Shown: positions 45,648 through 63,385 of the stretch, in pieces
Layout of the letters: the number at the start of each line of letters is the position of its first letter
How positions within the stretch are numbered: position 1 is the stretch's first letter
Virus record (IMG/VR): IMGVR_UViG_3300008107_000202
DNA from: a virus
Lineage: Duplodnaviria > Heunggongvirae > Uroviricota > Caudoviricetes
Direction: 5' to 3' (one strand)
Length of the DNA stretch: 64,000 bases
The notes under the pieces: model-generated
Databases searched by the model: none
Told to the model about the DNA's origin: nothing
Seen by the model: only the letters and a program-made list of their open reading frames with translations
Program-made: the position numbers and the translations under genes

Positions 45648-45659
45648 CCGGAGATAAAT

Positions 45660-46034
45660 ATGTTTAAAAAAGGTGATCCTAACATCAATCGTTCAGGACG
45701 ACCAACTGTAGCTGAGAAAATCATCAAAGATCGTGAAGCAGGTAAAGCTGTGAGTCGTCGTGCCTTGATGGATCGTGAGCTACTGCTGCTTCTACGTAAG
45801 CTTCGCCCTCACGTTGCTGACAGTGTATTGACTGCTGCTGGAATTATGCAGAATGAGGAAGCCAGTCACCAGAACAAGTTGAAGGCTTCAACGATCATTC
45901 TTGATGCTTATCGCAAGCTGGTCATTGATGTGTACGGTACAGAGGTTGATGAAGACCCTGAAGAAATTCAACAGAATAACGCTCCTGTGTTCAGCCTTAA
46001 GGTTGTAGGACAGGATGGAGAATCCAAGGAATGA
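45660..46034 (+). CDS. terminase small subunit-like protein
   Basis: KGDPNINRSGRP resembles the GNPNGRPKG motif of P27-type TerS; lies upstream of TerL. Confidence 0.4.
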   Translation: MFKKGDPNINRSGRPTVAEKIIKDREAGKAVSRRALMDRELLLLLRKLRPHVADSVLTAAGIMQNEEASHQNKLKASTIILDAYRKLVIDVYGTEVDEDPEEIQQNNAPVFSLKVVGQDGESKE

Positions 46035-46531
46035 CACTGAACAAGATTTGTAAAATTTGTAATATTGAAAAACCACTTTTTGATTTTTACAAGAGTGATG
46101 GGACGAAAGATAAACGTCACAGTTATTGCAAATCTTGTTGTAGCGAAAGAGCGAGATTGAACCATATCAAAAATCATGAAGTTAATCTTGCTAGAAATAA
46201 AAAATACTATATCGACAACCATGAAAAACAAAAAGAAGCAAGACGAGATTACTATAGACGAAACAAGAAAGTCTATCTTGTAAATTTTTATAAGAGAGAT
46301 GCCAGAATTAAGCAGGCTACTCCTTCTTGGTTGTCAGAAGAAATGTTGTCTGAAATAAAACAAATATACAAAAAGTGCGAAACAATCACTATTGAGTCAG
46401 GAACAGTTCATCATGTAGATCATATTGTACCGATAAACGGTAAGACGGTTTGTGGATTGCATGTGCCTTGGAATCTCAGAATTATTACAGCAAGTGAAAA
46501 CTTGAGAAAGAGCAACAAGCATGAAAGTTAG
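46031..46531 (+). CDS. HNH endonuclease (terminase-associated)
   Basis: HHVDHIVPI..NLRIITASENLRKSNK; N-terminal Cys cluster. Confidence 0.75.
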   Translation: MTLNKICKICNIEKPLFDFYKSDGTKDKRHSYCKSCCSERARLNHIKNHEVNLARNKKYYIDNHEKQKEARRDYYRRNKKVYLVNFYKRDARIKQATPSWLSEEMLSEIKQIYKKCETITIESGTVHHVDHIVPINGKTVCGLHVPWNLRIITASENLRKSNKHES

Positions 46532-48026
46532 ACCTGAACAAAAACAGCAAATCATAATTGGACCATCCAGTAAGAAGCAGGAAATGTTTCTTAATTCAGA
46601 TGCAACAATTACTGTTGCCGGCGGAGCAGCGGGCTCGGGTAAGAGTTACACATCCTTGTTGATTGCATTAAAATTCATGAGTGTGCCAAGATCGACGGGT
46701 GTTATCTTTCGTAGAACGTCTAAGATGATTACAGCTCCAGGGTCGATCTGGCATGAGGCAGTTCAGCTTTTTACAACTGTATACCCAAATCTCAAGATTC
46801 GTCATCGTGAAAACGAAATCGTATTTCCAAACGGTTCATTTTTGAAGTTTTCACATATGCAGCACTCATCAGATAAGTACAGTCATAAAGGAGCGCAGTA
46901 CAGTCTGGTTATCTTTGACGAAGCAACAGACTTCGAAGAAGAAATGGTTGTGTATCTGCTGTCTCGTATGCGTAACGTAAACGTACCGTACCAGCCTCAG
47001 ATGTTCCTAATGACAAACCCTGACTATAACAGTTTCCTTAGATTGTGGATTCAGGACTTCTATCTCGACAATACAGGTATTCCTATCCCTGAGAAGAGTG
47101 GTCACCAAAGATCGTTCTTCAGAGAGGGTAACACAATGGTGTGGTATAACAGCAGAGAAGAAGCAGAAGCTGTACACGGTGTTGGTACAGACAATGGTGT
47201 TTCTACGTTCACCTTCATTGGTGCTAACGTTTATGACAATCCCATTCTGATTAAGAATAACCCAAGCTATTTGACTCGTCTACAGAACCTTCCTCGTGTT
47301 GAGAAGGAACGACTACTTTATGGTTCATGGTTTGCAAGACAAGAGTCTGCTGGATTCTTCAAGCGTGAGTGGTGCAAGGAAGTTGATTTCCCTAACGCTT
47401 TAGCTCGTAAGAGAATTCGTGCATGGGACTTTGCTTTCACTAAGCCTTCTGACCAATACCCGAACCCTGACTGGACTCGTGGTACTCTGATTTCGAAAGA
47501 CAAGTCAGGAGTTTACACAGTTGAAGACTTGGTGTCAATCCGTGATCGTGTGCATGAAGTCGAAAGATTGATCTTCGATACCGCAAGACGAGACGGTCAA
47601 GGTGTCACGATTAGCATTCCATTGGACCCTGCTGCTGCTGCTGGTGCATACGCCAGAGATTTGCAACGTCAACTTGCTGAGATGGGATTCCATTGCAAGC
47701 TCTCTAAGCCTGTGAAGTCAAAGCTTACTCGATTCGCTCCGTTCTCAAGTCTAGCACAAGCTGGATTTGTCAATATTGTGAAAGCCCCTTGGAATGGTGA
47801 ATTCTATGATGAACTTGAGTTGTTTGACGGTGAGAACAAGAGACTGAAGGACGACATTGTAGACACATGCTCAGATGCTGTGTTGCACCTTAACAAAGAG
47901 CTTCAGATTCCTAACTTCACGATGCCTAACTTGGACAAGAGTGGTACTTTCGGATTCCAGAACAATCATATTCAGAAAGATGGTGGTGTGCTAAGTGTAG
48001 CAGTGCCTCAGAACATTACAGGATAA
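46521..48026 (+). CDS. terminase large subunit
   Basis: Walker A VAGGAAGSGKSY; C-terminal nuclease domain. Confidence 0.8.
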   Translation: MKVRPEQKQQIIIGPSSKKQEMFLNSDATITVAGGAAGSGKSYTSLLIALKFMSVPRSTGVIFRRTSKMITAPGSIWHEAVQLFTTVYPNLKIRHRENEIVFPNGSFLKFSHMQHSSDKYSHKGAQYSLVIFDEATDFEEEMVVYLLSRMRNVNVPYQPQMFLMTNPDYNSFLRLWIQDFYLDNTGIPIPEKSGHQRSFFREGNTMVWYNSREEAEAVHGVGTDNGVSTFTFIGANVYDNPILIKNNPSYLTRLQNLPRVEKERLLYGSWFARQESAGFFKREWCKEVDFPNALARKRIRAWDFAFTKPSDQYPNPDWTRGTLISKDKSGVYTVEDLVSIRDRVHEVERLIFDTARRDGQGVTISIPLDPAAAAGAYARDLQRQLAEMGFHCKLSKPVKSKLTRFAPFSSLAQAGFVNIVKAPWNGEFYDELELFDGENKRLKDDIVDTCSDAVLHLNKELQIPNFTMPNLDKSGTFGFQNNHIQKDGGVLSVAVPQNITG

Positions 48027-48029
48027 AAC

Positions 48030-49478
48030 ATGGCTACTAGAAAACCAGCAACAAAACCAAAGTCTTCACAGATGACAGAAGTCGGATACTCAGGTTTGAG
48101 AATGTTCGATGGTGTTACTGCAGAAGAGACAATGCGAGAGTTGAATTTCCCAAGATCGAATAAGGTCTTCAAGGAAATGTCATACCACCCTGCAATCAAC
48201 ACTGCTCTTTCTCTTTACAATAGCATGATTGGTAAAGCAACCTTCAGGTTTGTACCTCCGAAAGATGCAACAGCAAGAGAAGTAAAGCAAGCTGAAATGG
48301 TCGAGTCGATGTTTACTGACATGGACAGACCTATCGAAGAAGTAATGATCGACATCATGACGATGGCTACATACGGTTTCTGTGTGCTTGAGAAAGTCTA
48401 CAAGATTCGTAAGAAGAGTAAAGGTAGTCTGTACGACGACGGTATTGTTGGTATCAAAAAGCTAGCGTATCGTTCACAGGAAAGCATCGACAAGTTCGAA
48501 TTCGATGACGACGGTAACAACATTGTTGCAGTCAAACAGAATCTGAGTCTGATTGCTGACCCTTACCTTCGTTACTCTCGTCGCCCACACATGGAAATCA
48601 TTCTCCCTCGTGAGAAGTTCCTGTTGTTTAACATGGGTAGAAACACAAGTAATCCATACGGTCAGAGTCCACTGCGTGACGTTTACGTTCCCTGGAAATA
48701 CCTGACAAGTATCGAAGAGCTTGAAGCAATGGGTGTAGCTAAAGACCTACAAGGTCTTCCTGTGCTATATCTTCCCGCTCAATACATGAGTGAAGACGCA
48801 AGTCCTGAACAGAAAGCGATCTTTGATCAATTTAAGAATGTCATCAGAAACCTACAACAAAACAGTCAATCCGGTGTCATCCTTCCTAGCGCAGTTGACC
48901 CTGACACTCGTGCTCAATTGTTCAAACTTGAGCTACTATCAACCGAGGGTGGTAAGAAGTCTTACGACACAACAAAAGTCAAGGATTACTATCGTGCGAT
49001 GATCTTCATCGGTATGAATGCTGACATTCTACTGATGGGCAACACCGAAACTGGTTCATTTGCACTTGGTAGCCTTAAGAGTTCACTGACTGGTTCATTC
49101 GTAGAGTCAGTTCTTCAGCGTATTGTTCGTGTGTTTAATGACGATCTGATCAAACAAGTCTACGAACTCAACGGTTGGGATGTTTCTCGTCGTTGCAAGA
49201 TGGACTACGAAGGATTTGAAGACACTAACCTTGATGAATTCTCGAAAGCTGTTCAACGAATCGGTGCTGTCGGATACCTACCTAAGACAATTGAAGTTGT
49301 CAACAAGGTTCTGAGTGCAATGAGTATTGACACTCTTCCTGACGACACGGATGTTAAATCCATTCTACCTGAACAAGATACAAAAGCTGGTGAAGGAATG
49401 AAAGAGGGAATGGGATCAGGTACTGGCTCATCTAATGGTTCTTCAGGTGACCAAACATCATCTAACAACGATAACTGA
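48030..49478 (+). CDS. portal protein
   Basis: Size and position after TerL. Confidence 0.65.
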   Translation: MATRKPATKPKSSQMTEVGYSGLRMFDGVTAEETMRELNFPRSNKVFKEMSYHPAINTALSLYNSMIGKATFRFVPPKDATAREVKQAEMVESMFTDMDRPIEEVMIDIMTMATYGFCVLEKVYKIRKKSKGSLYDDGIVGIKKLAYRSQESIDKFEFDDDGNNIVAVKQNLSLIADPYLRYSRRPHMEIILPREKFLLFNMGRNTSNPYGQSPLRDVYVPWKYLTSIEELEAMGVAKDLQGLPVLYLPAQYMSEDASPEQKAIFDQFKNVIRNLQQNSQSGVILPSAVDPDTRAQLFKLELLSTEGGKKSYDTTKVKDYYRAMIFIGMNADILLMGNTETGSFALGSLKSSLTGSFVESVLQRIVRVFNDDLIKQVYELNGWDVSRRCKMDYEGFEDTNLDEFSKAVQRIGAVGYLPKTIEVVNKVLSAMSIDTLPDDTDVKSILPEQDTKAGEGMKEGMGSGTGSSNGSSGDQTSSNNDN

Positions 49479-49486
49479 GATTCATA

Positions 49487-51688
49487 ATGGAAAAGCTAGC
49501 CACAGAACTAACATTGAGATCACTTCTCGATGCAATTAGAAACAATAACAACTCAACGAGTGTTAACTCAACATCGGGTATACCAATGGGAAAAATTGCA
49601 ACAGAAGACACCCTTCTTGAGTTATTGGCTGTGGTTAGCAGCGACGGACTAGGCGACAGTGGTGAATCCAGCAAGAGTTATCTTAACTTCACAGGTGGAG
49701 AAGATGGCTCTGATGTTACTGCAGAACTACAGGCAATGTGTACTCTGGCTAACTCGCTAGGTATTCCTGTCAGACTCCCAGGTTGGGATTTGCATTTCAG
49801 TAGTACCCTCTTTGCTAATCAACTCATTGGTACAAGAGGTAAGACTAGACTTATTCCTTCTCAGACTTTTACTACAGCAGGATTTGCTAACGAATTCCTG
49901 ATTATCAACAGTAACTTCAGTCAAGGCTTCGATGAAGCCACAGCTAATTATGTTGTGTACAGAGACTTTGATGTTGAAATCACACCTAGTGATTCCACAA
50001 GAGGTAAATCACTGATCGGACTGGGTGGTGTTAAAGGTGGTGTAATCAGTGGTCTAAGATTGACCGCTAAACGAGTAATCGGTACAGACGGTGAACCAAT
50101 TAGATTCTTCCAGCTTATCGATGTATATTGCACTACTCGTAATCTGCACATCTACGGAAACGAATTCAGACAACTAACTGGTGCATGGGGTGCAGGTACA
50201 CCTATCCAGGCTGACGGTGGTGGCTGTCTAAACATTCGTAATCTGAGAGGCGGTCTAGCATCAGATGCTGAGAACTACGTTACACAAGACATTTTCATCC
50301 ACCACAATTACTTCGAACACCTTACGAGCGACGAATGTTTTGCCGTGTACGGAGTAAGAGGTATTACTCGTAGAATCAAAGTTCACCACAATGTATTCAG
50401 AGGTCTACCTACAACTGCAGACAAGGTTTACAACACTACGTTTATCGCTTTTTTCCCTCTCAATGATGGAAGCGGTGTGAACCTTGGTGCGACTGCTGCA
50501 GTATACGACTGTGAATTTTCTAACAATTACGTAGAGTCAGCTTGTACTCTTTACGATCTGTTCAGAATCGGTAATACACCTGACGCGAACAACAAATGTT
50601 ACAACAATAGAAGCAGTGATAACTACTTCCTGCACAAGATCAGTTTTGATCCAGTGACAGGTGCAGTTGCTGCAGCTACAGAGTTTGGTGCTCCAATCTC
50701 TCCAGTGATTGCTTCATCTGGCGCAAGATGTATTGATGGTAACTTCGGTGTTGCTTACCTGGGTGATGCGAGTGGTAACACTAGCACTAACGACATGGTT
50801 GTGCATTTGCAGGACGCTTTCGGTTCTGTAGTTGCTTCAGCTTTTACTGGTTTTCAGCTAATCAACAACCCGATCTGTTACGGTTCAATCGTGACTGCTA
50901 TCTCTTCTTGCCGAAATGTTAGCGGTGGACAGGTTGAATGTTTCGCTAGAGCTTTCTACAACTGCAGAAGCGTTGTAGGTACAAGCTGGCGTGTTAACGG
51001 TAGAAATGCAATCTACGTAGGATATGATGTTGACTCAAATGATGGTAGTCAGTATTCAATGACAAACACGAACGGTTTCAGTCAAGGTGGATTCGCAAGA
51101 ATCAGCAATAACATGAACGAAGCAAGTAGAGTTAACTTCTACAACAATACAGCTACGATCTACAGCAACACTCTTGAGCCTGTTATTTCAAGAGTAGCGG
51201 TGGATTACAGTTCTCTGAGCACAACCGCTACATTTAGACTGAACGAAATCAACGGTAGTCTTTCAACCATTAACTCAGGTCTACCACAACGTGTAAAACT
51301 GTGGATTCAATCTACAGCACCGACTGCAGAGAATCCTAAAGACTTGTGGATTGACACATCAGGTACTCCTGTTCTCAAGCGATGGGTTGATCCTACATGG
51401 ATTACTGCTACAGATAGAACTGGTGCAGCCATTGTGCTTTCACTTGGTGCAACTGAAGCTGGTGGTGACAATATCCTTAACGTTTTCGTTCAAGAAACAC
51501 CTTCCGGTGCAACACCGGCAGAAGGTGATGTACAAAGTAAACCATCCGAAGGTTATAAACTGTATAGGTTTACCTCTGGATCATGGGTGGATCACCCTAA
51601 CACTGCTTTCGCCACCGGACTGCTTACTGTTTCGGGTGTTGGAAGACTAAGAAGAAGTCTAAACAATTGGGGTGGAGTGGAGGATTAA
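49487..51688 (+). CDS. large structural protein with beta-helix-like repeats (fibre/spike candidate)
   Basis: 733 aa, Gly/Asn/Ser/Thr-rich repeats. Confidence 0.35.
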   Translation: MEKLATELTLRSLLDAIRNNNNSTSVNSTSGIPMGKIATEDTLLELLAVVSSDGLGDSGESSKSYLNFTGGEDGSDVTAELQAMCTLANSLGIPVRLPGWDLHFSSTLFANQLIGTRGKTRLIPSQTFTTAGFANEFLIINSNFSQGFDEATANYVVYRDFDVEITPSDSTRGKSLIGLGGVKGGVISGLRLTAKRVIGTDGEPIRFFQLIDVYCTTRNLHIYGNEFRQLTGAWGAGTPIQADGGGCLNIRNLRGGLASDAENYVTQDIFIHHNYFEHLTSDECFAVYGVRGITRRIKVHHNVFRGLPTTADKVYNTTFIAFFPLNDGSGVNLGATAAVYDCEFSNNYVESACTLYDLFRIGNTPDANNKCYNNRSSDNYFLHKISFDPVTGAVAAATEFGAPISPVIASSGARCIDGNFGVAYLGDASGNTSTNDMVVHLQDAFGSVVASAFTGFQLINNPICYGSIVTAISSCRNVSGGQVECFARAFYNCRSVVGTSWRVNGRNAIYVGYDVDSNDGSQYSMTNTNGFSQGGFARISNNMNEASRVNFYNNTATIYSNTLEPVISRVAVDYSSLSTTATFRLNEINGSLSTINSGLPQRVKLWIQSTAPTAENPKDLWIDTSGTPVLKRWVDPTWITATDRTGAAIVLSLGATEAGGDNILNVFVQETPSGATPAEGDVQSKPSEGYKLYRFTSGSWVDHPNTAFATGLLTVSGVGRLRRSLNNWGGVED

Positions 51689-52519
51689 ATGTGGACAACC
51701 AGCAACCTTAAACCTGAAATTCAATCTAAACCATTAGAGCACAGAGAAGCGTTTGTCACAGCAGCTAATGCTGCCCTTAAGAAAGGTCGAACGCTCTCTG
51801 AAGCTGAGTTTGCTGGTGAAGCGGCACTTGCTGCTTTATTGAAAGCAAAAGCTAGAAGTTCTCAGACTTTGCTGAACGAAGAAGTAAAGCTGAGACAACC
51901 TCCCCCTCATCTTGCTGCAATTCTTAAAGCTGCAGAGCTTAAGAAGAAAGCACTGGTTGAGAAAGTAGAAGAACCACAGCCTGTTGAAGTCAGACCTACC
52001 GTGGTAGAGCTTCGTTTCGACAGAGAAGGGTATTTGATTGTCAAATTTTCTGACGGCAAGATCGTAAGGTCTAAGAACGCAGTAAAGAAAGACGAACAAA
52101 TCACACAGAATCTGACCGTACAGACATCAGGTAGAGGCAATGGTACTTCTGAATTCTCAACTGAAAGTGAACTAAGTAGACAGTATTACTATGATGTATC
52201 TGAGAACCTAATCAGAATTGAATACGTATCTGGCAACTTCAAAACATTCGAATACAACTCAATCACTGGACTGCTTTCGATAGAAAACTATATCAAAGGT
52301 AGTACCAACTACCGTAAGACATATTTGTACGATTCAGCACAAAGACTGATTGAAATCATCTATGAGGTCGTAGTGTATACACCACCAGTCTTTACGGGAT
52401 TCTTTATTCCTCAGTATTCTGAGCCGCAATCTTTAGTGTTTAGTGGTAACTTCACAAGTCAATACTCTGAACCGGAAACCTTAGTATTTGATGGTCTTCT
52501 TGGACCTCAATACAGTTAA
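51689..52519 (+). CDS. structural protein (hypothetical)
   Basis: ORF only. Confidence 0.3.
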   Translation: MWTTSNLKPEIQSKPLEHREAFVTAANAALKKGRTLSEAEFAGEAALAALLKAKARSSQTLLNEEVKLRQPPPHLAAILKAAELKKKALVEKVEEPQPVEVRPTVVELRFDREGYLIVKFSDGKIVRSKNAVKKDEQITQNLTVQTSGRGNGTSEFSTESELSRQYYYDVSENLIRIEYVSGNFKTFEYNSITGLLSIENYIKGSTNYRKTYLYDSAQRLIEIIYEVVVYTPPVFTGFFIPQYSEPQSLVFSGNFTSQYSEPETLVFDGLLGPQYS

Positions 52520-52532
52520 TTGGAGAAAACAA

Positions 52533-55500
52533 GTGCCAGCAATTTTTTCGCAACAAAGAGTGTTTGCGTCAGCTACACCACCACCTTCGCCCCCTCCACC
52601 GCCGCCACCCCCACCGCCTCCTGCTGCTCCTGGCTTGACGGTCAGTGCTGGCGCTTCCAGTGGTACGGCTGGTGGTGGCACAGTCAGTGGTCCAACATTG
52701 ACTGCCCCAGGTGGAAACCTTTCGTCGGTGAACTGGTCTGCTTCAGCTTCTCCTTCAGGACTGACGATTAGTCCATCAAGTGGAACACTGACTCCGGGTC
52801 AAAGTGTAACTCCAACCCTTAGTTCCATTACTGCTGCTATTTATGCAATTACGGTTGCCAATAACAGTGGTGGTACGATTACAGGTTCAGCGGGTAATGT
52901 TCAGTTCTACGCACCAGTTCCACCGCCACCACCTGCGCCCGCCCCATCGGGTGGAGTTATGCAACTCACCTTGACCAGCGCCACCAGTGGTACGCTACCA
53001 TTTGCGGCTGGTTATACCTTCCGCCAAGGCGACATCCCAGCCGGTCAGGGTGTTGTCGTGTCAGGCGCCACCGCTCAAGCCACGATCAAGAGCACCTGGC
53101 CCGATGGCTCGGCGCGCATCGCCGTCATCGCGGGCACGTACACCAGCGCGGGCAGCCCGGTGACGCTGACGATGAGCGCGGGCACTGCCAGCACGGGAAC
53201 GGTGCTCACCACGTCCGACCTCGATGCAGCCCTGGCGGGCAACAACGTGATCGTGGACGCAGGCGGCCTGGGGCTGGCCTCGTGGAGTGCTGGCGCCGAC
53301 TGGGCGAGCCCCTTCGCCACCTGGGTGAGCGGGCATCGGATGTCGTCGTGGATTTACCGCAAGCCGGTGGGCAGCGACACGCACCTTGTCGCGTGGCTCG
53401 AAGTGCGGCTCTACGCGGGCGGCGCCGTCGAAATCCTGCCTTGGATCGAGAACGGCTATCTGAACGTAGCCTCGCCGACGAACAAGAGCGCCACCTACAC
53501 CTTCAGCATGGGCGGCACGACGCGATTCAGCGGCGTGATCGACCTCAAGCACCACCAGCGCACACCCCTCATCAGCGGCACGGGCCTGTCGCACTGGCTC
53601 GGCACCGACCCGGGCGTGACGATGCGGCACGACGTGGCGTACCTCATGAGCACGGAGATGGTGCCCACGTACCGCGCGCTTACGCCGGCCGGCGCTTCGG
53701 TTGTCAGCTCAGTCTGCCCGACCACCTTTGCGCCGCTGCAGCAGGGCGGGTACACCTACCAATCCGACAGCATGAGCAGCGGCGGCGCAGCCGGGCCCAT
53801 TGGCCTGCTGCCAACGCATGACGTGCTGTATCTGACCTGTGCCGCTGCTGACGCTGCGCGGGTTTACAAGGCGGTTGTCTTCAACGGCTACTCTGCTGGC
53901 CGCTATCGCCACCACTACCGTGACGAGACGACCAACCGGCCGCCGTTGACGAGCGCTTACCCAACCCTCTGGATTGACAACAACACGCCCACGCCCAGCG
54001 GCGGCGAAGGCCCGGAGCGCGACATCGCGCACCATCCCTCTGTCGGCTTCATGGCGTATCTTGTCACCGGGCGCTGGTACTTCATGGAAGAAGCTGCTCT
54101 GTCGGCGAGCTTCAATCACTTCGTCAAGAGCTTCAACTCGGTCATGCGCGACGGGTCGAAGGGCCTGTTCCAGTCCTGCTTCGGCGCGTGGCAGACCCGC
54201 TCAGCCGCTTGGACGATGCGGACCTGGGCGCAGGCCCTGGCGATCATTCCCGACGCCGACACAACACTGAAGGCTGATTACCTTCAGGTCTGGCACGAGA
54301 ACGTGGACAAGTTCCACGCGCAGTACGTCGTCCAGCCCGGCAACCCCTGGGGCTGGGTCGAGCCGGGTGAGGAGTACGACGCCACCTTCCGACTCGGCCA
54401 CGGCGCACCCTGGCAGCAAGATTTTGTTAGTGCAGCGGTGGGCTACTCGCGGGCGCTCGACCTCACGACCGACGCCACGCGCAAAGCCCGCTGGCAGGCG
54501 TTTCACGAGTGGAAGGCACAGTCAACCATCAAGCGCCTGGGCCCGTCCGACGCCTTCTGGTACATCAACGGCGGCGTGTATGGCCAGCGCATCAGCCCGT
54601 CAGCACTGACCGCGGACGACTACCGCAACGGCACCGGCACGTTCTACACCCCGGCGCAGAGCTACGCTCAGATCGTCGCGGGACTGACTGCTGCCTCGGC
54701 CCCGACAGGCTGGATCGGCACGACCGAGGGTGTGCTGAACGGCGAAATCATGCCGGGCGAGTCGGCCATGTGGGGCAACCTGACGCCATCGCTGGCCTAT
54801 GCGGTGCGGTTCGGTATCAGCGGTGCTCTGGCTGCGTATCAGCGGCTTGTTGGCGCGGGCAACTGGATCCCGCTTGCTGCTGCTTTTAATGCGCAGCCGG
54901 TGTGGTCTGTGCTCCCGGCCAGTGGTGCGCTGCCGACGTGGCTTGCTTCGCAGCCGCTGAACACCTGGATTGAGATTCCAAACACGAATGGTCGCGTTAC
55001 CACTGCAGTGGTTAACGGCGTATCTGAGCCTGTGCTGACAACCGGAGATGGGGCATTTGAAGCTTGGGGCGCATTCACGGTAAAAGGTGACACCAGTGAG
55101 CTTTTCATTGCAGCTTCTGGTGGGCACGGTGATAGCTCCGATAATCGCGTGGTCAGTATTTCTCTGTCAAGTGATACCCCGACTTGGGTTCTACGCAGCC
55201 AACCTTCGACAGTAGTGCAACTTGACCGCACAAGTGGTTACTACCTCGACGGTAAGCCCACTTCTCGTCACCTATATGACGATATTTTCTATTTACCGCA
55301 ACTACAAAGGGTGATGATGGTAGGTGGTCGCGCTATTTATGGTGGAGGTGGGCCTGAAACGCCTGCTGTCACTGGATTTGATGTGAACAGCAATACCTGG
55401 GACACTGAAGGAAAGTTTACAAGTGTCGTGCAGAGTGGCGGCACACCTTTTGGTATGGTGATGAATAAGCGGACAGGTGCAGTTTTCACCACAATCTTGG

Positions 55501-56048
55501 GTGCGGTCAGTGGTCGCTGGTCCCCTCCAGTATCAACTACAGGAACCGGGTTAGGTACATTCACAAGCAACGCTGTTACGGGCTTCTCAGCCGTCAACAA
55601 CCGTTGGCCGGGAGCTTGGGATGGAAGTCGCAGTCAGTGCTTTGTTCTAAATCTTGGCAACGGGGAGGGTGGCAACGTCGATTTTGGCCTGCGTGCCTAT
55701 CGCTGGAGTGACACAGGTGGTGTGGCTAATACTATCACGTTTAACACCAGTGCGACATACACCGCTTGGGTGGCTTCAGTACCCGAATATGCAGCGATGG
55801 ATTACGACCCAGACAATGACTGTTATCTGTTTATGCACAAAAAGCAGGCACCTGCTATTCAACGTATTAAACCTAACAGTGGTACAGTGTGGGATATGGA
55901 CACGTTGACTGTGGCAGGCGGCCCACCAACGGCTCGACCATCAGGTAATTATGGGCCTCAAGGCTCATTCAAATACGTGCCAGCGCTTCGCGGTTTCGCG
56001 TATCTGCCACGCGCAAATAGTAACATTTGGTTCATAAGGACGGCCTGA
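52533..56048 (+). CDS. large tail fibre/adhesin-like protein with poly-Pro linker and a central GC-rich (foreign-looking) domain
   Basis: GTG start after GGAGAA. PPPPSPPPPPPPPPPAAP; Ig-like Ser/Thr repeats. The central ~1.9 kb is visibly GC-rich. Confidence 0.5.
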   Translation: MPAIFSQQRVFASATPPPSPPPPPPPPPPPAAPGLTVSAGASSGTAGGGTVSGPTLTAPGGNLSSVNWSASASPSGLTISPSSGTLTPGQSVTPTLSSITAAIYAITVANNSGGTITGSAGNVQFYAPVPPPPPAPAPSGGVMQLTLTSATSGTLPFAAGYTFRQGDIPAGQGVVVSGATAQATIKSTWPDGSARIAVIAGTYTSAGSPVTLTMSAGTASTGTVLTTSDLDAALAGNNVIVDAGGLGLASWSAGADWASPFATWVSGHRMSSWIYRKPVGSDTHLVAWLEVRLYAGGAVEILPWIENGYLNVASPTNKSATYTFSMGGTTRFSGVIDLKHHQRTPLISGTGLSHWLGTDPGVTMRHDVAYLMSTEMVPTYRALTPAGASVVSSVCPTTFAPLQQGGYTYQSDSMSSGGAAGPIGLLPTHDVLYLTCAAADAARVYKAVVFNGYSAGRYRHHYRDETTNRPPLTSAYPTLWIDNNTPTPSGGEGPERDIAHHPSVGFMAYLVTGRWYFMEEAALSASFNHFVKSFNSVMRDGSKGLFQSCFGAWQTRSAAWTMRTWAQALAIIPDADTTLKADYLQVWHENVDKFHAQYVVQPGNPWGWVEPGEEYDATFRLGHGAPWQQDFVSAAVGYSRALDLTTDATRKARWQAFHEWKAQSTIKRLGPSDAFWYINGGVYGQRISPSALTADDYRNGTGTFYTPAQSYAQIVAGLTAASAPTGWIGTTEGVLNGEIMPGESAMWGNLTPSLAYAVRFGISGALAAYQRLVGAGNWIPLAAAFNAQPVWSVLPASGALPTWLASQPLNTWIEIPNTNGRVTTAVVNGVSEPVLTTGDGAFEAWGAFTVKGDTSELFIAASGGHGDSSDNRVVSISLSSDTPTWVLRSQPSTVVQLDRTSGYYLDGKPTSRHLYDDIFYLPQLQRVMMVGGRAIYGGGGPETPAVTGFDVNSNTWDTEGKFTSVVQSGGTPFGMVMNKRTGAVFTTILGAVSGRWSPPVSTTGTGLGTFTSNAVTGFSAVNNRWPGAWDGSRSQCFVLNLGNGEGGNVDFGLRAYRWSDTGGVANTITFNTSATYTAWVASVPEYAAMDYDPDNDCYLFMHKKQAPAIQRIKPNSGTVWDMDTLTVAGGPPTARPSGNYGPQGSFKYVPALRGFAYLPRANSNIWFIRTA

Positions 56049-56049
56049 C

Positions 56050-58158
56050 ATGGCAATCACACTAAACGGTATAAATCAATACCTCGACATCGCTCAGAGG
56101 GTTGTCGGCTCATCGTTTCCATTCACCATCGTCGCATATGTGGCGAACGTAGGGTCTGAAACTAACGGTGGCTCGGAACGCACAGTCGTTTCAATGAGCC
56201 AACTATCAGCGGACAAGTGGGTCCGCATGTCTATCGGCGGCGGCAATAGTAGTAAGTTCGCCGGTCTTCGTTACAACACAGACGCAAATGCCACTAAGAC
56301 CACACCTCCCGACTTCTCAGATTCCAACTGGAATCTTCAGATGGGTGTTTACAATACGACTTCACAAGCTGTCTGGTTTGGCGACACCAGCGAAGAAGTT
56401 AACCCTGCTACAGTAACCGATCAAACCGGCGACCTGAACACAACCAGTATCGGCGTAATTCAGCGCAACACGAGTGAGAAAATTCTCTACTACAAGGGTT
56501 CGATTGCGGAGGTGCATTTCTACAACCGAGCATTGACCGACACTGATTACATAGCGCTGACGACTGGTACGCTCCCAGAGAACGTCGCAGATTGGATTGA
56601 CGGTTGGACGCTGCTGAATAACTCAGATTTGACCAGCATCAGCGGTACGCGCACGTTGTCAGCGTACAACTCGCCGACGACTTCGGCTCTACCACACCCA
56701 ATCAGTCGTGGCGTTCCAACTCTTTCCGCTCCAACAGTCGTAAGCACTGGCAATACCATTTCTACAGTTAGAGTAACAACCGACGTTGCACCTTCTGGTT
56801 CTTCAACATTGGCAATTCAAGTTCTACCTGCTGCTACAGCTACACCTACTGCTGCTGCTATTCTTGCAGCACCTACTTTGACAATCACTAGTGGTGCAAC
56901 TGGTGCTCGTGATTTCAACCTGACTGGTCTTACTAACGGTACAGCTTATCGAGCGCACTTTGCTCAAACTGGCCCAAGTAACGTTGTAAGTACAGCAAGT
57001 TTTACTCCGAGTACAGTCCCTGGTGCTCCAACAATTGGTACTGCTACAGTAGGTAATGCTCAAGCAACGGTAAACGGTACTGCTCCTGCAAGTAATGGTG
57101 GTTCAGCAATTACTGGATATCGTTCAACAGCGACACCCGGTGGTAGTACGGTAACTGGTGTTTCATTGCCAATTACTCACACTGGACTTACTAACGGTAC
57201 AGCTTATACCTTCACGCTTGCTGCACAAAACGCTAACGGTTTTGGAGCAGAGAGTGCGTCGTCCAATAGTGTAACACCGACTAGTGGTGGTGATACGACT
57301 AACCCGACAATGACAGGTGTAGTCTCATCGTCAGGTATTACATCTGCTGGTGCGACAATTAGCTGGTCAGCAGGTAGCGACAACGTTGCAGTTACAGGAT
57401 ACGAGTATAGACTGAACGGTGGTTCTTATGTTTCAGTAGGAAACGTTCTGACTACTGCATTGTCTGGACTTACACCTTCGACTGCTTACACGGTGGATGT
57501 TCGTGCATTCGACGCTGCTGGCAATAGAAGTACAGCTATCACAGGTAACTTCACAACGAGTGCTGCTTCGGACACCACGCCTCCTACGCTAACTGGTTCA
57601 ATTACGGTTGGAACAGTTACAGCTAGTTCTGTTCAGATTAGCTGGCCTGCGGGTAGCGACAACGTTGCGGTTACAGCGTATGAAGTAAGTTCGAACGGTG
57701 GAACCTCGTACTCAAACGTAGGTAATGTTCTGACATTTACATTTACAGGTCTTTCACCTAGCACTTCTTACTCATTCAGAGTAAGAGCTAGAGACGCTGC
57801 TGGTAACGTAAGTTCTGCACTTTCTGTAACTCAGTCAACAAACGCTGGCTCATCAATAATTCTTAAACGAATTGTTGTGGTTCTTACTACAAACGGAACT
57901 GCACCAGCTGCTTCACTTGTTAACCTCAAGTGGGCTTTCTTTGATGAGAATCGTCCTGACCTGTTCAACGGTCCAAGTTGTCAAGGTGCTACAGAGATTA
58001 CTGACCTGAGTGGTGTTCTTGAAATCGACGTTACAGACTCAAGCTTGGCAATTGGACAGACTGGATGGCTGATCATTACCGACAGTGATGGTACGGTATT
58101 CCAGAATCCTCCTGCTAAAGCTTTTAGTGCTCCAGTACAAGTAATTGCCGCTTCATGA
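56050..58158 (+). CDS. tail fibre/adhesin with N-terminal ConA/LamG-like lectin domain and fibronectin type III repeats
   Basis: Repeated SWSAGSDNVAVTGYEY..GLTPSTAYTVDVRAFDAAGN FN3 units. Confidence 0.5.
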   Translation: MAITLNGINQYLDIAQRVVGSSFPFTIVAYVANVGSETNGGSERTVVSMSQLSADKWVRMSIGGGNSSKFAGLRYNTDANATKTTPPDFSDSNWNLQMGVYNTTSQAVWFGDTSEEVNPATVTDQTGDLNTTSIGVIQRNTSEKILYYKGSIAEVHFYNRALTDTDYIALTTGTLPENVADWIDGWTLLNNSDLTSISGTRTLSAYNSPTTSALPHPISRGVPTLSAPTVVSTGNTISTVRVTTDVAPSGSSTLAIQVLPAATATPTAAAILAAPTLTITSGATGARDFNLTGLTNGTAYRAHFAQTGPSNVVSTASFTPSTVPGAPTIGTATVGNAQATVNGTAPASNGGSAITGYRSTATPGGSTVTGVSLPITHTGLTNGTAYTFTLAAQNANGFGAESASSNSVTPTSGGDTTNPTMTGVVSSSGITSAGATISWSAGSDNVAVTGYEYRLNGGSYVSVGNVLTTALSGLTPSTAYTVDVRAFDAAGNRSTAITGNFTTSAASDTTPPTLTGSITVGTVTASSVQISWPAGSDNVAVTAYEVSSNGGTSYSNVGNVLTFTFTGLSPSTSYSFRVRARDAAGNVSSALSVTQSTNAGSSIILKRIVVVLTTNGTAPAASLVNLKWAFFDENRPDLFNGPSCQGATEITDLSGVLEIDVTDSSLAIGQTGWLIITDSDGTVFQNPPAKAFSAPVQVIAAS

Positions 58159-58188
58159 AAAAAATGGGGGTGAAATTCCCCCATTTAC

Positions 58189-58217
58189 TTGACATTTTGT
58201 TGTTTTTATGATACAAT
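58189..58217 (+). promoter_or_regulatory. sigma70-like promoter TTGACA-N17-TACAAT, preceded by hairpin AATGGGGG..CCCCCATT
   Basis: Read directly. Confidence 0.5.
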
Positions 58218-58249
58218 AGCGTCTCACAGTTATGTAATGGAGGAAATGT

Positions 58250-58990
58250 ATGCAAGAGACAAGAAAGTACACTCCACCGGATGCTGTGCTAAAGAACATG
58301 CGTCGAGGTCGAAGCATTGCAGTCATGAAAAACCGCAAGCCTACCATCGACAAATTGAGCACTGAGTTTAGTCTAAATGATATTAAAGAACTCTACACGA
58401 AGCAAACGAAGTTTATCGGTAAGTCGATTAACCCACTTGCTCGACTAGCAGATGGTGGACCGTCTGATGGTTTTCTTGAGTTTCTTACGACTGGCGGAAA
58501 AGCAGGTTTAGCTTGGACTCGAAAAGTGCTTAAAGAAAATGGAGTTCTGAAAAGCTACGGTGACACCATCACTGAAGCTGAACTCAACACAGAAGAAAAA
58601 GTTGTAGGTTTCGATCTTCCAATTGAGAAACAACACAATGATGAACTGATGCAGGTAACTTATGTTGCAATGCTCCCCGACTCTACCGATCTGACTGGTG
58701 ACTATACATCAGCAGAAGACGTTCGTAAAGCGATGGAATCATTTAACAAAAGTGCAATGCGAGCTAATCTTTTCCACAGAGTCATGACTGATAAGTTTCA
58801 TGTTGTGGAATCATATCTCGCACCTACCGATTTTGTGCTCAATGAAATTCCGGTAACAAAAGGCACTTGGCTCATGACTTTCCAGATTAATGATGAGAAT
58901 ATCTGGAAGATGATTAAGTCTGGTGATATCACAGGTATCAGCATTGGTGCCCGCGCAACAGTCGAAACCTTAGAGGATGATGATGACTAA
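58250..58990 (+). CDS. head morphogenesis protein (possible prohead protease)
   Basis: Position immediately before the scaffold gene; no motif confirmed. Confidence 0.3.
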   Translation: MQETRKYTPPDAVLKNMRRGRSIAVMKNRKPTIDKLSTEFSLNDIKELYTKQTKFIGKSINPLARLADGGPSDGFLEFLTTGGKAGLAWTRKVLKENGVLKSYGDTITEAELNTEEKVVGFDLPIEKQHNDELMQVTYVAMLPDSTDLTGDYTSAEDVRKAMESFNKSAMRANLFHRVMTDKFHVVESYLAPTDFVLNEIPVTKGTWLMTFQINDENIWKMIKSGDITGISIGARATVETLEDDDD

Positions 58991-59972
58991 ACCGAAACGA
59001 ACTCTAAAGAACATCGACTTCAGTAAAGAAGACAGCCACATCGCACTGGTTGGTCCCGCTGTAGGTGGACCAGCAAATGGTGCTGATTATGCACTAGTGA
59101 TGAAAGCAGTAAGTTTTAGTGAAGAAGCTATTGAGAAGATGCAGTCGATCAAGGTCACAATGAGTGTGCCTGATTTCCTACGCAAATTCTTTGGTCTTTA
59201 CTACGAAGACGCTGAAGTTCTAGCTCGTGTCATGGGTTATGTTCCGCCTGAGTCTGACGAATCAGATTCTGAGACATCTTACGAAGACTGGATTCAATCC
59301 AAGGTTGAATCGTTCGAGATTCTGAAGTCACTTCAAGAGTCAACGGATGTTGAAACGCGATTGTCTGAACTAGATGAAGAACAATACATGTCTTTCATGC
59401 TTGATCAAGAAACCATTGAGAAGGCACTGAAGAAGTATGAAAAAGATTCCAAGGCTACTGCCAAACCAAAGGCTAGAGTCAAGGATGCCTCACCCGCTAG
59501 CGAGGAAAGAAAAGAAGAGGCGTCTGCCTCTGGTTCAAAACCAAATGTGGAGAAATCTATGACAAAAACTATCGAAACCGAAGTTACGGTTGAAATGGTT
59601 GAAAAGTCAGCCCTGGAAAACATTCAAAAGTCTCTGACTGAGACGATGGAAGAACTTCAGAAGGCTAAGGACGAAGTAAATCAATTCCGCAAAGAACGTG
59701 CAGAAGCTATTCGCAAGTCTCGCTTTGACGCACTGAAGACTGCAGTCAAGGATGAAGCAAAAGCTGAAGTTCTTTTCAAAGCTGTAAGTCTAGTAGAGAA
59801 ACAAGAAGACTTTGACGCTGTTGTCAAGGTTCTTGCTGAGATGAATAGTGCTGTTGAAAAGTCAGCATTGTTTGAAGAAAAAGGTGCAAGTGCAGAAACG
59901 ACTACGACTCTCGTGAAAGAGAATCCTATCGTCAAGGCTCTTCGCGCACAAAAAATCATTAATGAAAAGTAA
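58977..59972 (+). CDS. scaffold protein
   Basis: Acidic, coiled-coil, Glu/Lys-rich. Confidence 0.5.
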   Translation: MMMTKPKRTLKNIDFSKEDSHIALVGPAVGGPANGADYALVMKAVSFSEEAIEKMQSIKVTMSVPDFLRKFFGLYYEDAEVLARVMGYVPPESDESDSETSYEDWIQSKVESFEILKSLQESTDVETRLSELDEEQYMSFMLDQETIEKALKKYEKDSKATAKPKARVKDASPASEERKEEASASGSKPNVEKSMTKTIETEVTVEMVEKSALENIQKSLTETMEELQKAKDEVNQFRKERAEAIRKSRFDALKTAVKDEAKAEVLFKAVSLVEKQEDFDAVVKVLAEMNSAVEKSALFEEKGASAETTTTLVKENPIVKALRAQKIINEK

Positions 59973-59986
59973 ACGAGGAATAAATC

Positions 59987-60388
59987 ATGCCTGCTCCATT
60001 TGCTACTGATACCTTCCGTTTTAGCCACCTTGTGAAGCACGAATATGAGCCGAACTTCGCTTACTGCCGCGATGTTCTTGTTGCTAACGAAGCCGGTGCT
60101 CGTACCTATGTTGTAGGTACTGTACTTGGTCGCGTTACTGCAAACGGTAAAGTTCGTATTGCTGTACAAACTGCCTCAGACGGTTCACAAAACGCTTTCG
60201 CCATCTGCCTTGAAGACAGAGCTATTCCTGCTACCACAGACACTCGTGTACTGTGCCTAGTTCGTGGTCCAGCTATTGTTTCCAAGTTCGCTCTGGTACT
60301 CGACGCAACGTTCGACCTTCTGGCTGAACAGAATGCGCTGTACGCACAGCTTGAAGCTCTCGGCATTCGTGTAAACGACGCTGTTTAA
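59987..60388 (+). CDS. head decoration protein (lambda gpD-like)
   Basis: Size and position before the major capsid gene. Confidence 0.4.
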   Translation: MPAPFATDTFRFSHLVKHEYEPNFAYCRDVLVANEAGARTYVVGTVLGRVTANGKVRIAVQTASDGSQNAFAICLEDRAIPATTDTRVLCLVRGPAIVSKFALVLDATFDLLAEQNALYAQLEALGIRVNDAV

Positions 60389-60415
60389 TTCTAACTACAA
60401 CTAAGGACTATTACA

Positions 60416-61432
60416 ATGCCTACAGTTCGTTCATTTGAAAAGCCGTTTGAGCTTGTAGACTATACCGAAGAACTGAATCTGATTCCCAATACCTGGGGTC
60501 TGATCAATGAGCTTGGTATTTTCCGTAGTGAGCCTGTTGCTCAGCACAGCATCACTATCGAATCTAAAGCTGGTACTCTCGGTGTAATCACTGACCAAGT
60601 TCGCGGTGCTCGTAACCTTGTCAACAGAGACGAAGTTGCTGCCCTGCGTTCATTCGCAATCCCTCACTTCCCGCTTGACGATGCTGTCAGCCCGCAAGAC
60701 CTTCAAGGTAAGCGTGCTTATGGTACCGCTGACCAAGCTGAAACGGAAGCTGCTGTAATCGCTCGTAAGCTGGCTCGTATTCGTATGAACCACGCAGTTA
60801 CGATGGAAACTGCTCGCGCATTTGCCATCACGAACGGTGCAGTTTACGCTCCCAACGGTACGGTTGTTGGTAACTACTACAGTGACTTCGGTGTTACTCG
60901 TCGTGAAGTTGACTTCGTGCTTGGTACCGCAGGTACTGACGTTATCGCTAAGGCTGAAGAAGTTATCGCGCACATTCAGGACAACATTCTGAGTGGTGAA
61001 AGCGTAACGAGTGTCGTGGCTCTTTGCAGCCCTGCATTCTTCGGCAAGCTGATTGCTCAAGCTGGTATCAAGGAAGCTTACAAGTTCTACACTTCGACAC
61101 AAGAACCTCTGCGCCAGCGCCTTGGTTCAGGTCTGTTCCGCCGCTTCGAACACGGTGGTGTGGAGTTTATCGAGTACCGTGGTTCATACAACGGTGTTCC
61201 TCTGATTCCTGCAAACGATGCTTACTTCGTTCCGCGTGGTACTGCTGACATGTTCATCAGCTACTTCTCGCCTGCGAACAAGTTCTCGCACGTTAACACG
61301 CTTGGTGAGGAAGCTTACGCCTTCTCATACCGTGATAGTAAGGATGAAAAGATTGAACTTCAGACTGAGCACAACGCTCTTCACCTGATCCGTCGTCCTG
61401 CTGCGGTTGTCCGTGGCTTCACAAGCAACTAA
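60416..61432 (+). CDS. major capsid protein (lambda gpE-like family)
   Basis: 338 aa; followed by a strong terminator. Confidence 0.6.
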   Translation: MPTVRSFEKPFELVDYTEELNLIPNTWGLINELGIFRSEPVAQHSITIESKAGTLGVITDQVRGARNLVNRDEVAALRSFAIPHFPLDDAVSPQDLQGKRAYGTADQAETEAAVIARKLARIRMNHAVTMETARAFAITNGAVYAPNGTVVGNYYSDFGVTRREVDFVLGTAGTDVIAKAEEVIAHIQDNILSGESVTSVVALCSPAFFGKLIAQAGIKEAYKFYTSTQEPLRQRLGSGLFRRFEHGGVEFIEYRGSYNGVPLIPANDAYFVPRGTADMFISYFSPANKFSHVNTLGEEAYAFSYRDSKDEKIELQTEHNALHLIRRPAAVVRGFTSN

Positions 61433-61449
61433 TCACTGCTTGTACGACA

Positions 61450-61473
61450 GAGCCCCTTCGGGGGCTCTTATTA
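61450..61473 (+). terminator. Rho-independent terminator AGAGCCCC-TTCG-GGGGCTCT + TATT
   Basis: Read directly. Confidence 0.55.
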
Positions 61474-61512
61474 AAGTATTCATGTGAGTGCTTTACTAAG
61501 AGAGGAAACACA

Positions 61513-61932
61513 ATGGCTACACCAGAACAAATTCAACAAGTAAGATATGAACTGGCAGACACGGACGTTGGTTTCCCGATGTTGTCAGATCAAGAGTACA
61601 CATACTTCATTGACAAAAACAACTCAAGCATTCGTCGTGCAATGATCGATGCAGCTAAGAGTATCCTGTTTAAGCTATCGATGCGTGGTGATGAAACCGT
61701 TGACATCTTCAGTGTAAAAGGATCGAAAGCTGCTGAACAGTATCGAATGGCTCTACAGTTGTTCATTAAGAATCCTGACTTCAATCCTGCACTGACACTC
61801 GCTGGCGCTTATGCTGGTGGTATCTCCAAACAGGATATGCGTGAGAACATCCTTAACGAAGACAACAACGCTGTGCTTGTACCAACTGACCCAAAGACTT
61901 ATCCTGATAACTATTTTGAGGTACCGGAATGA
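61513..61932 (+). CDS. head-tail connector/completion protein (hypothetical)
   Basis: Gene order only. Confidence 0.3.
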   Translation: MATPEQIQQVRYELADTDVGFPMLSDQEYTYFIDKNNSSIRRAMIDAAKSILFKLSMRGDETVDIFSVKGSKAAEQYRMALQLFIKNPDFNPALTLAGAYAGGISKQDMRENILNEDNNAVLVPTDPKTYPDNYFEVPE

Positions 61933-62285
61933 ATCTCTTTGTAATCTCTACAAACAGAATGATTGACCGCTTTGGTGCAAACGTTACGTTCAGGAGAATT
62001 GTAAACGGAGCATACGACTTCGATACAGGCGCTGTTAGTTCGACACAAGTTGATACTACAGCCAAAGCTTACAAGAGACAGATTGAGGCTAGTCAATACA
62101 ACTACCCGAATCTGATCGGTAAAGAGGTTGCTGAGTTCTATGCTAAAGCTGCACTATTCACAGAGAAACCAACCGTCAACGACAAGGTTGTCTCTGGAAC
62201 TGACACGTACACTGTGCAACGAGTTTCCGAGCATGGTGCGATGGGTGAAGTTATTCTATATCGACTTCTCTGTGTGAAAACATGA
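61929..62285 (+). CDS. head-tail joining protein (hypothetical)
   Basis: Gene order only. Confidence 0.3.
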   Translation: MNLFVISTNRMIDRFGANVTFRRIVNGAYDFDTGAVSSTQVDTTAKAYKRQIEASQYNYPNLIGKEVAEFYAKAALFTEKPTVNDKVVSGTDTYTVQRVSEHGAMGEVILYRLLCVKT

Positions 62286-62890
62286 TTGATATGAATCTGG
62301 ATGAAGTGCTAAAGAGTCTTGTGAAAGTTGAAGAGACTTTCGTGCGTAAGCTCGATTTCATGTTCACCGGATTCTTCTATGAGCTTACCGAAAAAGCTGT
62401 AATGAATACACCTTTCGGTAATTCTGACACTAATGCAGACAAGTATGAAGCCAGAAGCTATACGTTCTTCGGTCGAATGCTACCAACTACAGAAGGTACT
62501 GCACGTAACTCGTGGCGTTTCTCTGCTCCTGTTGGTGCTGGTGATGTTCGTAACGCTAACTTCTTGTTTACCTCACCAAGCTCTACTTATCTAGGTGGAT
62601 GGCTTGCTGGTGATGAACAAGGAAGTGTGTCTCTAGGTAGAGTAAAGACTCAAATCTCAGACTTCGATGTAATGAAGAATGGATTCGTTGTCATCTACAA
62701 CAACGCACCTTACATCACGAAGAACAAAGGTTATTTCCCTAGTGGACGAGATTGGTCGGGTGCGACAATGGGTCTAGAACAAGGTCATTCTACTCAAGCT
62801 CCTTCTGGTATTACAAAGCCTACAATTGCTGATATTCAAGCAATCTACAAAGCGTCAGGCAAGTTCAAATCACTATTCGATCAGGGGTAA
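62282..62890 (+). CDS. tail completion protein (hypothetical)
   Basis: Gene order only. Confidence 0.3.
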   Translation: MIDMNLDEVLKSLVKVEETFVRKLDFMFTGFFYELTEKAVMNTPFGNSDTNADKYEARSYTFFGRMLPTTEGTARNSWRFSAPVGAGDVRNANFLFTSPSSTYLGGWLAGDEQGSVSLGRVKTQISDFDVMKNGFVVIYNNAPYITKNKGYFPSGRDWSGATMGLEQGHSTQAPSGITKPTIADIQAIYKASGKFKSLFDQG

Positions 62891-62891
62891 C

Positions 62892-63305: not shown

Positions 63306-63385
63306 GGTTTCAGGTTTTGTCGAGTGTACCTAAAACATTCGAACTCTTTGCAAAGTGAAACAAACTAATACATAAGGAATCTGAC

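Follow-up and report, generated by a model that had tools for sequence, protein, structure and literature searches.

The DNA analysed here is a stretch of 64,000 nucleotides (nt) from a virus of the Caudoviricetes (IMG/VR record IMGVR_UViG_3300008107_000202), which is called the window below. It carries a gene at 52533..56048 (+ strand) for a protein of 1171 amino acids (aa), and our results suggest that this gene is probably a recombinant mosaic, with one exchange nested in another, and part of the cassette by which a low-GC Burkholderiales phage recognises the host surface. The centre of the gene is occupied by a GC-rich patch (53046..54990, + strand; residues ~186–835), in which the G+C content at third codon positions (GC3) reaches 0.85 and which covers most of a beta-domain and an (α/α)6 toroid. 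This patch lies inside a larger exchangeable cassette (52940..57350, + strand), which was delimited by blastn and blastp comparison of the window with contig L010, which belongs to a sister phage. Residue numbers are counted from the ATG at 52491 and equal the public numbering plus 14.

A sequence-only reading of the window had described a segment within this gene that switches to very high G+C and returns to the local composition near 54900, and the computation agreed with it. The GC of 53000–54900 was 0.659, compared with 0.447 ± 0.022 (maximum 0.508) in background windows of 1.9 kb (z = 9.5). The profile rose from about 0.38–0.46 upstream to 0.61–0.69 over ~52950 to ~54950 and then fell to about 0.50; the 1-kb bins within 53001–55000 had values of 0.667 and 0.645, and the rest of the window is at about 0.44. 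The GC and codon-usage plots along the gene showed that the composition is not smooth. A two-breakpoint likelihood fit of GC3 gave 0.39, 0.85 and 0.48 for the three segments with a log-likelihood gain of 113, and placed the breakpoints at 53016–53085 on the left and 54786–54873 on the right. When 60-codon windows were used, GC3 was 0.27–0.45 for residues 1–150, 0.72–0.97 for residues ~180–780 and 0.40–0.53 for residues 810–1185. The GC of the first and second codon positions was nearly flat along the gene, indicating that the change is confined to synonymous third positions and does not concern the amino acid content. It suggested an import, in that the synonymous-site composition deviates and does so with discrete breakpoints.

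The gene had been described as encoding 1186 aa, which is true of the maximal open reading frame (ORF) from the TTG at 52488, but the probable product is the protein of 1171 aa from the GTG at 52533, which is preceded by a GGAG at 52522–52525, 7 nt upstream, and agrees with the public gene call P0001. We considered a frameshift fusion with the upstream 276-aa gene but rejected it: a stop codon, a GGAG/AGGAG site and a GTG/TTG start follow one another in the window and in L010 alike. The GC switch was also said to generate spurious antisense ORFs, and these are present as listed, at 53061..53630 (189 aa), 53709..54119, 54201..54506 and 54600..55127 on the minus strand, together with out-of-frame ORFs at 53282..53821 and 54509..54889 on the plus strand. 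They appear because stop codons are rarer in the patch, where the minus-strand stop-codon frequency is 0.030 compared with 0.0525. Purifying selection acts on the sense frame, with a ratio of nonsynonymous to synonymous substitutions (dN/dS) of about 0.1 against the nearest relative, and the antisense ORFs were not accepted as genuine genes.

A high-GC source had been proposed for the segment, and the closest relatives support this. Two proteins are much closer than the other relatives, P0002 with 83% and P0003 with 73% identity. P0002 is encoded on contig L001 and on the IMG/VR contigs L004 and L005, all of which are ~70% GC throughout, and P0003 on a 172-kb bacterial contig of 69% GC. Because L005 bears head-morphogenesis and major-head genes, it belongs to a phage or prophage. 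The genes of P0002 and P0003 have a uniformly high GC3 of 0.86–0.89 from end to end. Donor-like sequence exists in genomes of matching composition (L001, L004 and L005). In the patch, the window and L005 are 89% identical at the nt level and 93% at the aa level, with a dS of 0.40 and a dN of 0.043 (Nei-Gojobori).

The whole body of the protein, residues ~146–1185, is one homologous family, and its identity to L005 changes abruptly along the gene. Codon by codon, the nt identity was 83–97% for residues 186–835, compared with 67–77% for residues 146–185 and 47–77% for residues 846–1185. Identity-based maximum likelihood breakpoints fell at 53025–53064 and 54984–55023 and separated segments of 72.6, 89.2 and 66.8% nt identity. 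The support intervals of the breakpoints are 53016–53085 for the left end and 54786–55023 for the right end, and by the domain boundaries of an AlphaFold2 (AF2) model the right end lies at or just before the linker between the toroid and a propeller. The left flank of the enzyme body (52947..53045, + strand) is AT-shifted, with GC3 of 0.45–0.60, 80% aa identity to L005 and a proportion of synonymous differences (pS) of 0.72. The 3' part (54991..56048, + strand), which encodes a six-bladed Kelch-type beta-propeller, is likewise AT-shifted, with GC3 of 0.25–0.60, 68% aa identity and a saturated pS of 0.79. Over both flanks the comparison with L005 is synonymously saturated (pS 0.72–0.83), and nearly all third-position differences are G or C in L005 and A or T in the window.

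Phylogenetic incongruence between the patch and the C-terminal part was found at the protein level. In the patch, the aa identity was 93% between the window and P0002, 79% between the window and P0003 and 80% between P0002 and P0003. In the C-terminal part, the three were nearly equidistant (68%, 71% and 74% among the window, P0002 and P0003), and no specific grouping with L005 was seen. Quartet sites joining window and P0002, window and P0003, or P0002 and P0003 numbered 781, 28 and 109 in the patch and 82, 153 and 196 in the C-terminal part. Among 1000 bootstraps, the closest pair was the window and P0002 in all 1000 for the patch, and P0002 and P0003 in 870 for the C-terminal part. The short left flank gave 98, 8 and 3 sites, and it groups with P0002 despite its saturated synonymous sites. 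These incongruent quartets indicated that the body has at least two histories, and probably three.

These data bear on the possibility that the whole body was acquired once from a high-GC donor and then ameliorated unevenly, with the middle kept GC-rich by weaker mutation pressure or by codon or mRNA selection. Three low-GC phages (the window, L007 and L012) have an elevated GC3 over much the same portion of the gene, which agreed with such a process. However, the dS from L005 is 0.40 in the patch and saturated elsewhere, whereas the high-GC control pair L005 and L002 gave similar dS values of 0.75 and 0.85 in the two segments. Because the control pair behaves alike in both segments, the contrast in dS between patch and flanks is not an intrinsic rate difference. 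With the incongruent protein-level quartets and with breakpoints as abrupt as a few tens of nt, we regard uneven amelioration as very improbable.

As the window is a metagenomic assembly and the partners are homologous at the junctions, a chimera in which a low-GC and a high-GC phage were joined at homologous stretches was also considered. L021 (42 kb) and L022 (14.8 kb), two contigs that come from different samples, were 99.99% identical to the window across both junctions, with one mismatch each, and because two independent assemblies reproduce both junctions an assembly chimera was rejected. Moreover, the reading frame is intact, the patch is 11% off the nearest high-GC sequence, and the flanks, at ~70% identity, are too divergent for a k-mer assembler to be misled. 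An artefact of this kind is therefore extremely improbable.

The comparison with L010 revealed the larger unit in which the patch is nested. L010 is an IMG/VR contig of 45% GC that has no GC island and is collinear with window positions 49146–64000 except for 52940–57350. Outside this cassette the two are 86–99% identical at the nt level, and the flanking proteins are mostly 93–100% identical, with 87–95% nt identity there. The L010 gene at this locus shares residues 16–141 with the mosaic protein (71% aa), and after a second poly-proline tract it continues as a GDSL/SGNH esterase. Homology to L010 stops at 52939 and homology to L005 starts at 52920, and both positions are within the (CCN)n tract that encodes poly-proline linker 2 (52914..52946, + strand), which blastn limits and a three-way alignment identified as the left junction of the cassette. 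This comparison indicated that the shuffled unit is the whole enzymatic head together with the 5' part of the next gene, and that the 1.9-kb GC-rich patch is nested inside it. The domain shuffling that the sequence-only reading had suggested is thus found at this locus, with the GDSL esterase of L010, but the GC-rich block is not the shuffled unit; it appears to have been replaced homologously and brought no new domain. A constant N-terminal module with an interchangeable C-terminal enzymatic domain among relatives is the arrangement expected of phage receptor-binding proteins of the depolymerase type.

The next gene (56050..58158, + strand; 702 aa) takes part in this exchange. Pfam fn3 matches, tail-related PHROGs families and synteny characterise its product, which combines an N-terminal part resembling LamG/sialidase-N with FN3 repeats. 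The 5' part of the gene, up to ~57350, is low-GC and lies within the cassette that differs from L010. In both L005 and the window the next gene begins 1 nt past the stop codon, and the N-terminal parts of the two downstream proteins align weakly (28% over 183 aa, E = 0.013). In L003, L005 and L012, homologues of this N-terminal part occur together with the toroid and propeller genes. L003 (59% GC; 6251–11346) and L012 (8864–14844) have three adjacent separate genes, for the propeller, for a homologue of the 702-aa protein and for the toroid protein, whereas the window, L005 and bacteria have a toroid–propeller fusion. It suggested that toroid, propeller and 702-aa-type proteins work together.

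Taken together, the data are consistent with two layers of exchange. In the first, which L010 shows, enzymatic heads are swapped behind a constant N-terminal peptide and Ig-like module, with the crossover inside the GC-rich poly-proline-coding (CCN)n linker, giving the PL26-like toroid and Kelch propeller in the window and the GDSL esterase in L010. In the second, the central ~1.95 kb (~53050–55000) of an AT-adapted body would have been replaced by the allele of an L005-type ~70%-GC phage. This replacement may have occurred by homologous recombination during co-infection or an encounter with a prophage in a Burkholderiales host. It would be recent enough that the synonymous sites keep the donor composition (GC3 0.85). 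Phages of very different GC presumably infect the same Burkholderiales hosts, and such sharing of hosts would make the exchange possible.

The donor could also have been a host chromosome or a prophage, from which the patch was captured directly, and not a free phage genome. The family is abundant in the chromosomes of Burkholderiales. About 575 proteins, all annotated as hypothetical, match residues ~150–1185 at 42–48% identity, and they come from, for example, Roseateles, Massilia, Rubrivivax, Pelomonas and Azohydromonas, whose genomes have 65–70% GC. The bacterial homologues bear Tat or lipobox/lipoprotein signals. In two Massilia genomes (L026 and L027), the homologue lies amid an exosortase-type exopolysaccharide (EPS) biosynthesis locus, together with Wzy_C, Wzx, several glycosyltransferases, Asn synthase, an AMP-binding enzyme, an Orn/DAP decarboxylase and a FemAB-like acetyltransferase; in one Roseateles genome it is not in an EPS locus. 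These locations hint that the native role of the bacterial family is the processing of the cell's own exopolysaccharide, and the ultimate origin of the family would be a secreted bacterial enzyme that is sometimes encoded in EPS loci. In addition, the L005-type contigs are short, and they may be pieces of prophages. However, the closest chromosomal homologue, P0003, is only 79% identical at the aa level and ~78% at the nt level in the patch, compared with 93% and 89% for the phage allele, and when species-representative genomes were scanned for a nearer bacterial donor the best match was 52%. The plan of poly-proline, Ig-like domain and poly-proline is common only to the phage allele; P0002 has poly-proline, a PKD domain, poly-proline and the body, which is the plan of the window with a different Ig-like domain. 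We therefore consider direct capture from the host distinctly unlikely.

The protein consists, in order, of an N-terminal peptide of ~14 residues, a first poly-proline linker, an Ig-like domain, a second poly-proline linker, a beta-domain and (α/α)6 toroid that resemble PL26/PcRGLX, and a Kelch propeller. Linker 1 (52578..52622, + strand) is a (CCN)n tract encoding PPPSPPPPPPPPPPP, as found from the translation and from a tandem repeat at 52576–52618. L010 has a poly-proline tract at a similar place, and the translated L005 protein has one near its N-terminus. The Ig-like domain (52623..52913, + strand) has a low GC3 of 0.27–0.45 and gave a weak match to Pfam BACON_2 (E = 0.0053; 17.1 bits with a cut-off of 25; 32 residues), in a region where the AF2 confidence was low. 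The AF2 model showed a beta-rich domain at residues ~155–400, an all-helical toroid at ~440–800 and a beta-propeller at 825–1185, with a poorly predicted short linker at residues 835–854. Fold searches with the full-length model were swamped by generic propeller matches, and a separate model of residues 155–835 was made. The predicted structure of the toroid body is a carbohydrate-active catalytic fold, which agreed with the receptor-binding or enzymatic domain that the earlier reading had suspected, and the propeller has a six-bladed fold with Kelch repeats.

Sequence searches gave little for this protein. Single-sequence and profile searches of PDB sequences found no matches, and PHROGs contained no family for the mosaic protein or for its two upstream neighbours. 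Its homologues matched the PcRGLX model PF19501 weakly, the best with E = 4.3e-4, and all of them below the cut-off. DNA searches of a phage collection with the gene and with 44000–52400 found no match, and tblastn of the protein against the same collection found a single match of 25% identity, in EBPR siphovirus 1. The gene belongs to the virion/structural module, with the portal gene on one side and the genes for prohead protease and capsid on the other; the homologues in L005 and L007 lie downstream of head genes. For the label of tail protein, which the sequence-only reading had used, this gene position is the sole support. From the predicted fold, the exchange of heads and this location, we postulate that the gene most likely encodes a virion-associated depolymerase of exopolysaccharide or capsule.

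Several observations weigh against this interpretation of the gene. The identity of the patch to L005 is uneven, being ~92% over 53055–54230, ~84% over 54240–54870 and ~95% over 54870–54990, which may reflect more than one event, a finer mosaic or local rate differences. The right breakpoints obtained from GC3 (54786–54873) and from identity (54984–55023) are ~150 nt apart. Even the closest match to the patch is 11% different at the nt level (dS 0.40), which makes it a donor-like allele, and the replacement is recent only in a relative sense. In the viral contigs, the protein database and the metagenome contigs, no unconverted low-GC allele of the gene was found, and searches of the same three sources with the C-terminal part returned only stand-alone propellers of 32–42% identity. 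On the side of function, the window protein had no significant Pfam match to any PcRGLX domain, and the N-terminal peptide, with only ~14 aa ahead of linker 1, is unlike a typical tailspike anchor. Finally, the resident AT-adapted copy is itself deduced, and the flanks of a recently acquired gene could have been overwritten instead.

This last point corresponds to the reverse polarity, in which an L005-like high-GC phage recently supplied the whole body, and low-GC homologous sequence, coming from phages related to the recipient, later replaced ~100 nt at its 5' end and ~1 kb at its 3' end. Such a history would leave the same end pattern of identities and GC3. Exchange of cassettes among relatives is shown by L010, and the 5' part of the downstream gene, which is in the same cassette, is low-GC. 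On the other hand, it needs two further crossovers compared with one patch, and it requires a low-GC homologue in the population, of which the searches above gave none. We consider it rather unlikely, and replacement of the centre of an AT-adapted body by a high-GC allele remains the probable explanation.

Homologues in other low-GC phages indicated that the pattern is not limited to the window. L007 is an unrelated phage contig of 44% GC with another portal family (phrog_1216), and its homologue (7450–8697; 65% aa identity) has a GC3 that climbs from 0.5 to 0.7–0.93 past the N-terminal ~90–150 residues; the contig ends inside the gene. The climb suggests that the GC jump recurs in independent low-GC phages. 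In L012, a phage of 45% GC, the homologue is patchy, with GC3 of 0.25–0.73. A full-length homologue on the 385-kb viral contig L006 has GC3 of 0.15–0.33. We tentatively raise the possibility that (CCN)n poly-proline linkers act as portable recombination joints, by which phages ~25 GC points apart trade heads on shared Burkholderiales hosts, and that high-GC alleles repeatedly re-convert AT-adapted copies, as in the window, L007 and L012, faster than amelioration can erase them.

The surrounding genes place the window phage in a known group. The large terminase (TerL; 46521–48023) and a Mu-type portal (48030–49475) are followed by ORFs of 733, 276, 1171 and 702 aa, and then by an S78 prohead protease, an HDPD decoration protein and a lambda-E-type capsid protein. 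The nearest cultured relative is Limnohabitans phage DC31, with identities of 74% for TerL and 73% for the major capsid protein; for Curvibacter phage P26059A the values were 47% and 67% (capsid protein). These two Pakpunavirus-like phages of Comamonadaceae share with the window the order of terL, portal, protease and capsid genes, phoH and tRNAs. It is reported that DC31 has a GC of 37.58% on a host of 59.25%, and that YIMV22061, a phage obtained on a closely related strain of Limnohabitans, has a GC of 64.76% (PMC12195039). It suggests that low-GC phages of this group live on Burkholderiales of much higher GC, alongside high-GC phages. ARAGORN found 13 tRNA genes at 40–6959 on the minus strand, and most of them decode A- or U-ending codons (anticodons TAA, CAA, TTG, TTT, TCT, TGT, TAC and TCC), a set that fits a low-GC phage on a higher-GC host. 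One extra tRNA-like match (35941–36015, + strand) was given by Rfam alone. The window phage would be a lytic, low-GC, Pakpunavirus-like freshwater phage predicted to infect Burkholderiales.

Between the portal and the prohead protease (49487–52519 included), the window has four large genes, and DC31 (L023/L024) has entirely unrelated ones with no homologue of the mosaic protein, so that this interval looks like a variable insertion hot spot. Within it, the 733-aa protein (49487–51688) has no Pfam or PHROG family and is 98% identical in L010. The 276-aa protein (51689–52519) is 78% identical to its L010 counterpart, compared with 98–99% for its neighbours, and it ends with a repeated ...PQYSEP..LVF.G... 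motif directly before the mosaic gene.

A second GC island occupies 39700–42000, with GC of 0.61 and GC3 of 0.69–0.75. The sequence-only reading had raised a common donor for this island (given there as 39.5–41.7 kb) and the patch, which was rejected as unsupported. The main gene of the island encodes a DUF7227 protein (40789–41583), and small ORFs lie at 40063–40317, 40393–40773 and 41580–41735. The DUF7227 protein is 44–48% identical to those of Pseudomonas Pakpunavirus-like phages and of Curvibacter phage P26059A, and because its homologues are in Pakpunavirus-like phages the gene is typical of the lineage. The island is also present in the sister contig L009, where its nt identity is 85%, compared with 92–97% in its flanks. 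The GC3 is not the 0.85 of the patch, and no similarity was seen between the island and L005-type contigs. The island may be another homologous replacement by a higher-GC allele. Upstream, a region of ~1.2 kb (38460–39640) has no ORF longer than ~100 aa and no Rfam match, and is ~90% conserved in L009.

Modular exchange of this kind is known in the depolymerase receptor-binding proteins of Klebsiella phages. A similar exchange of enzymatic domains was reported in E. coli O-antigen tailspikes (PMC10408124). As in these tailspikes and depolymerases, close relatives have an N-terminal module in common but carry unrelated carbohydrate-active domains at the C-terminus, a linker holds the junction, and transfer has occurred horizontally between phage lineages. 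However, tailspikes are usually trimeric beta-helices, whereas the window protein is predicted to combine a PL26-like beta-domain, an (α/α)6 toroid and a Kelch propeller. Its anchor would be the ~14-aa peptide with the Ig-like domain between poly-proline linkers, and its gene lies between portal and prohead protease. The PL26 exo-rhamnogalacturonan lyase PcRGLX of Penicillium chrysogenum (PDB 5XQ3/5XQG) has ~10% sequence identity to the window protein, in which a Kelch propeller takes the position of the C-terminal beta-sandwich of PcRGLX.

Atypical GC3 marks recently imported DNA, and amelioration shifts such DNA toward the composition of the recipient, according to the concept of Lawrence and Ochman. 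The patch agrees with this concept in its atypical GC3 and in flanking homologous sequence that looks shifted toward the recipient composition. It differs in that their islands are inserted gene islands in a bacterial chromosome, whereas here an intragenic homologous patch lies between phage alleles ~25 GC points apart. DC31 resembles the window phage in a GC far below that of its host.

Modular evolution of phage receptor-binding and depolymerase genes and the compositional signature of recent transfer are known, and current views of mosaicism stand. What is unusual here is the gap of ~25 GC points, the young patch nested in older homologous sequence and the poly-proline-coding junction, as well as a non-beta-helix architecture of PL26-like toroid and Kelch propeller from an uncharacterised Burkholderiales family. 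The poly-proline linkers are the splice points of domain exchange in this gene. The finding also draws attention to an uncharacterised enzyme family in hundreds of Burkholderiales genomes, as a candidate exopolysaccharide depolymerase recruited by phages. If poly-proline joints and re-conversion by high-GC alleles proved true, intragenic GC patches could be used to trace host linkage and co-infection in uncultured freshwater phages. The case is a clean and datable instance of gene flow across a wide difference in phage base composition, and it implies that phages or prophages of ~70% GC and a lytic phage of 45% GC meet in the same Burkholderiales cells, which would provide a clue to host linkage for uncultured freshwater phages.

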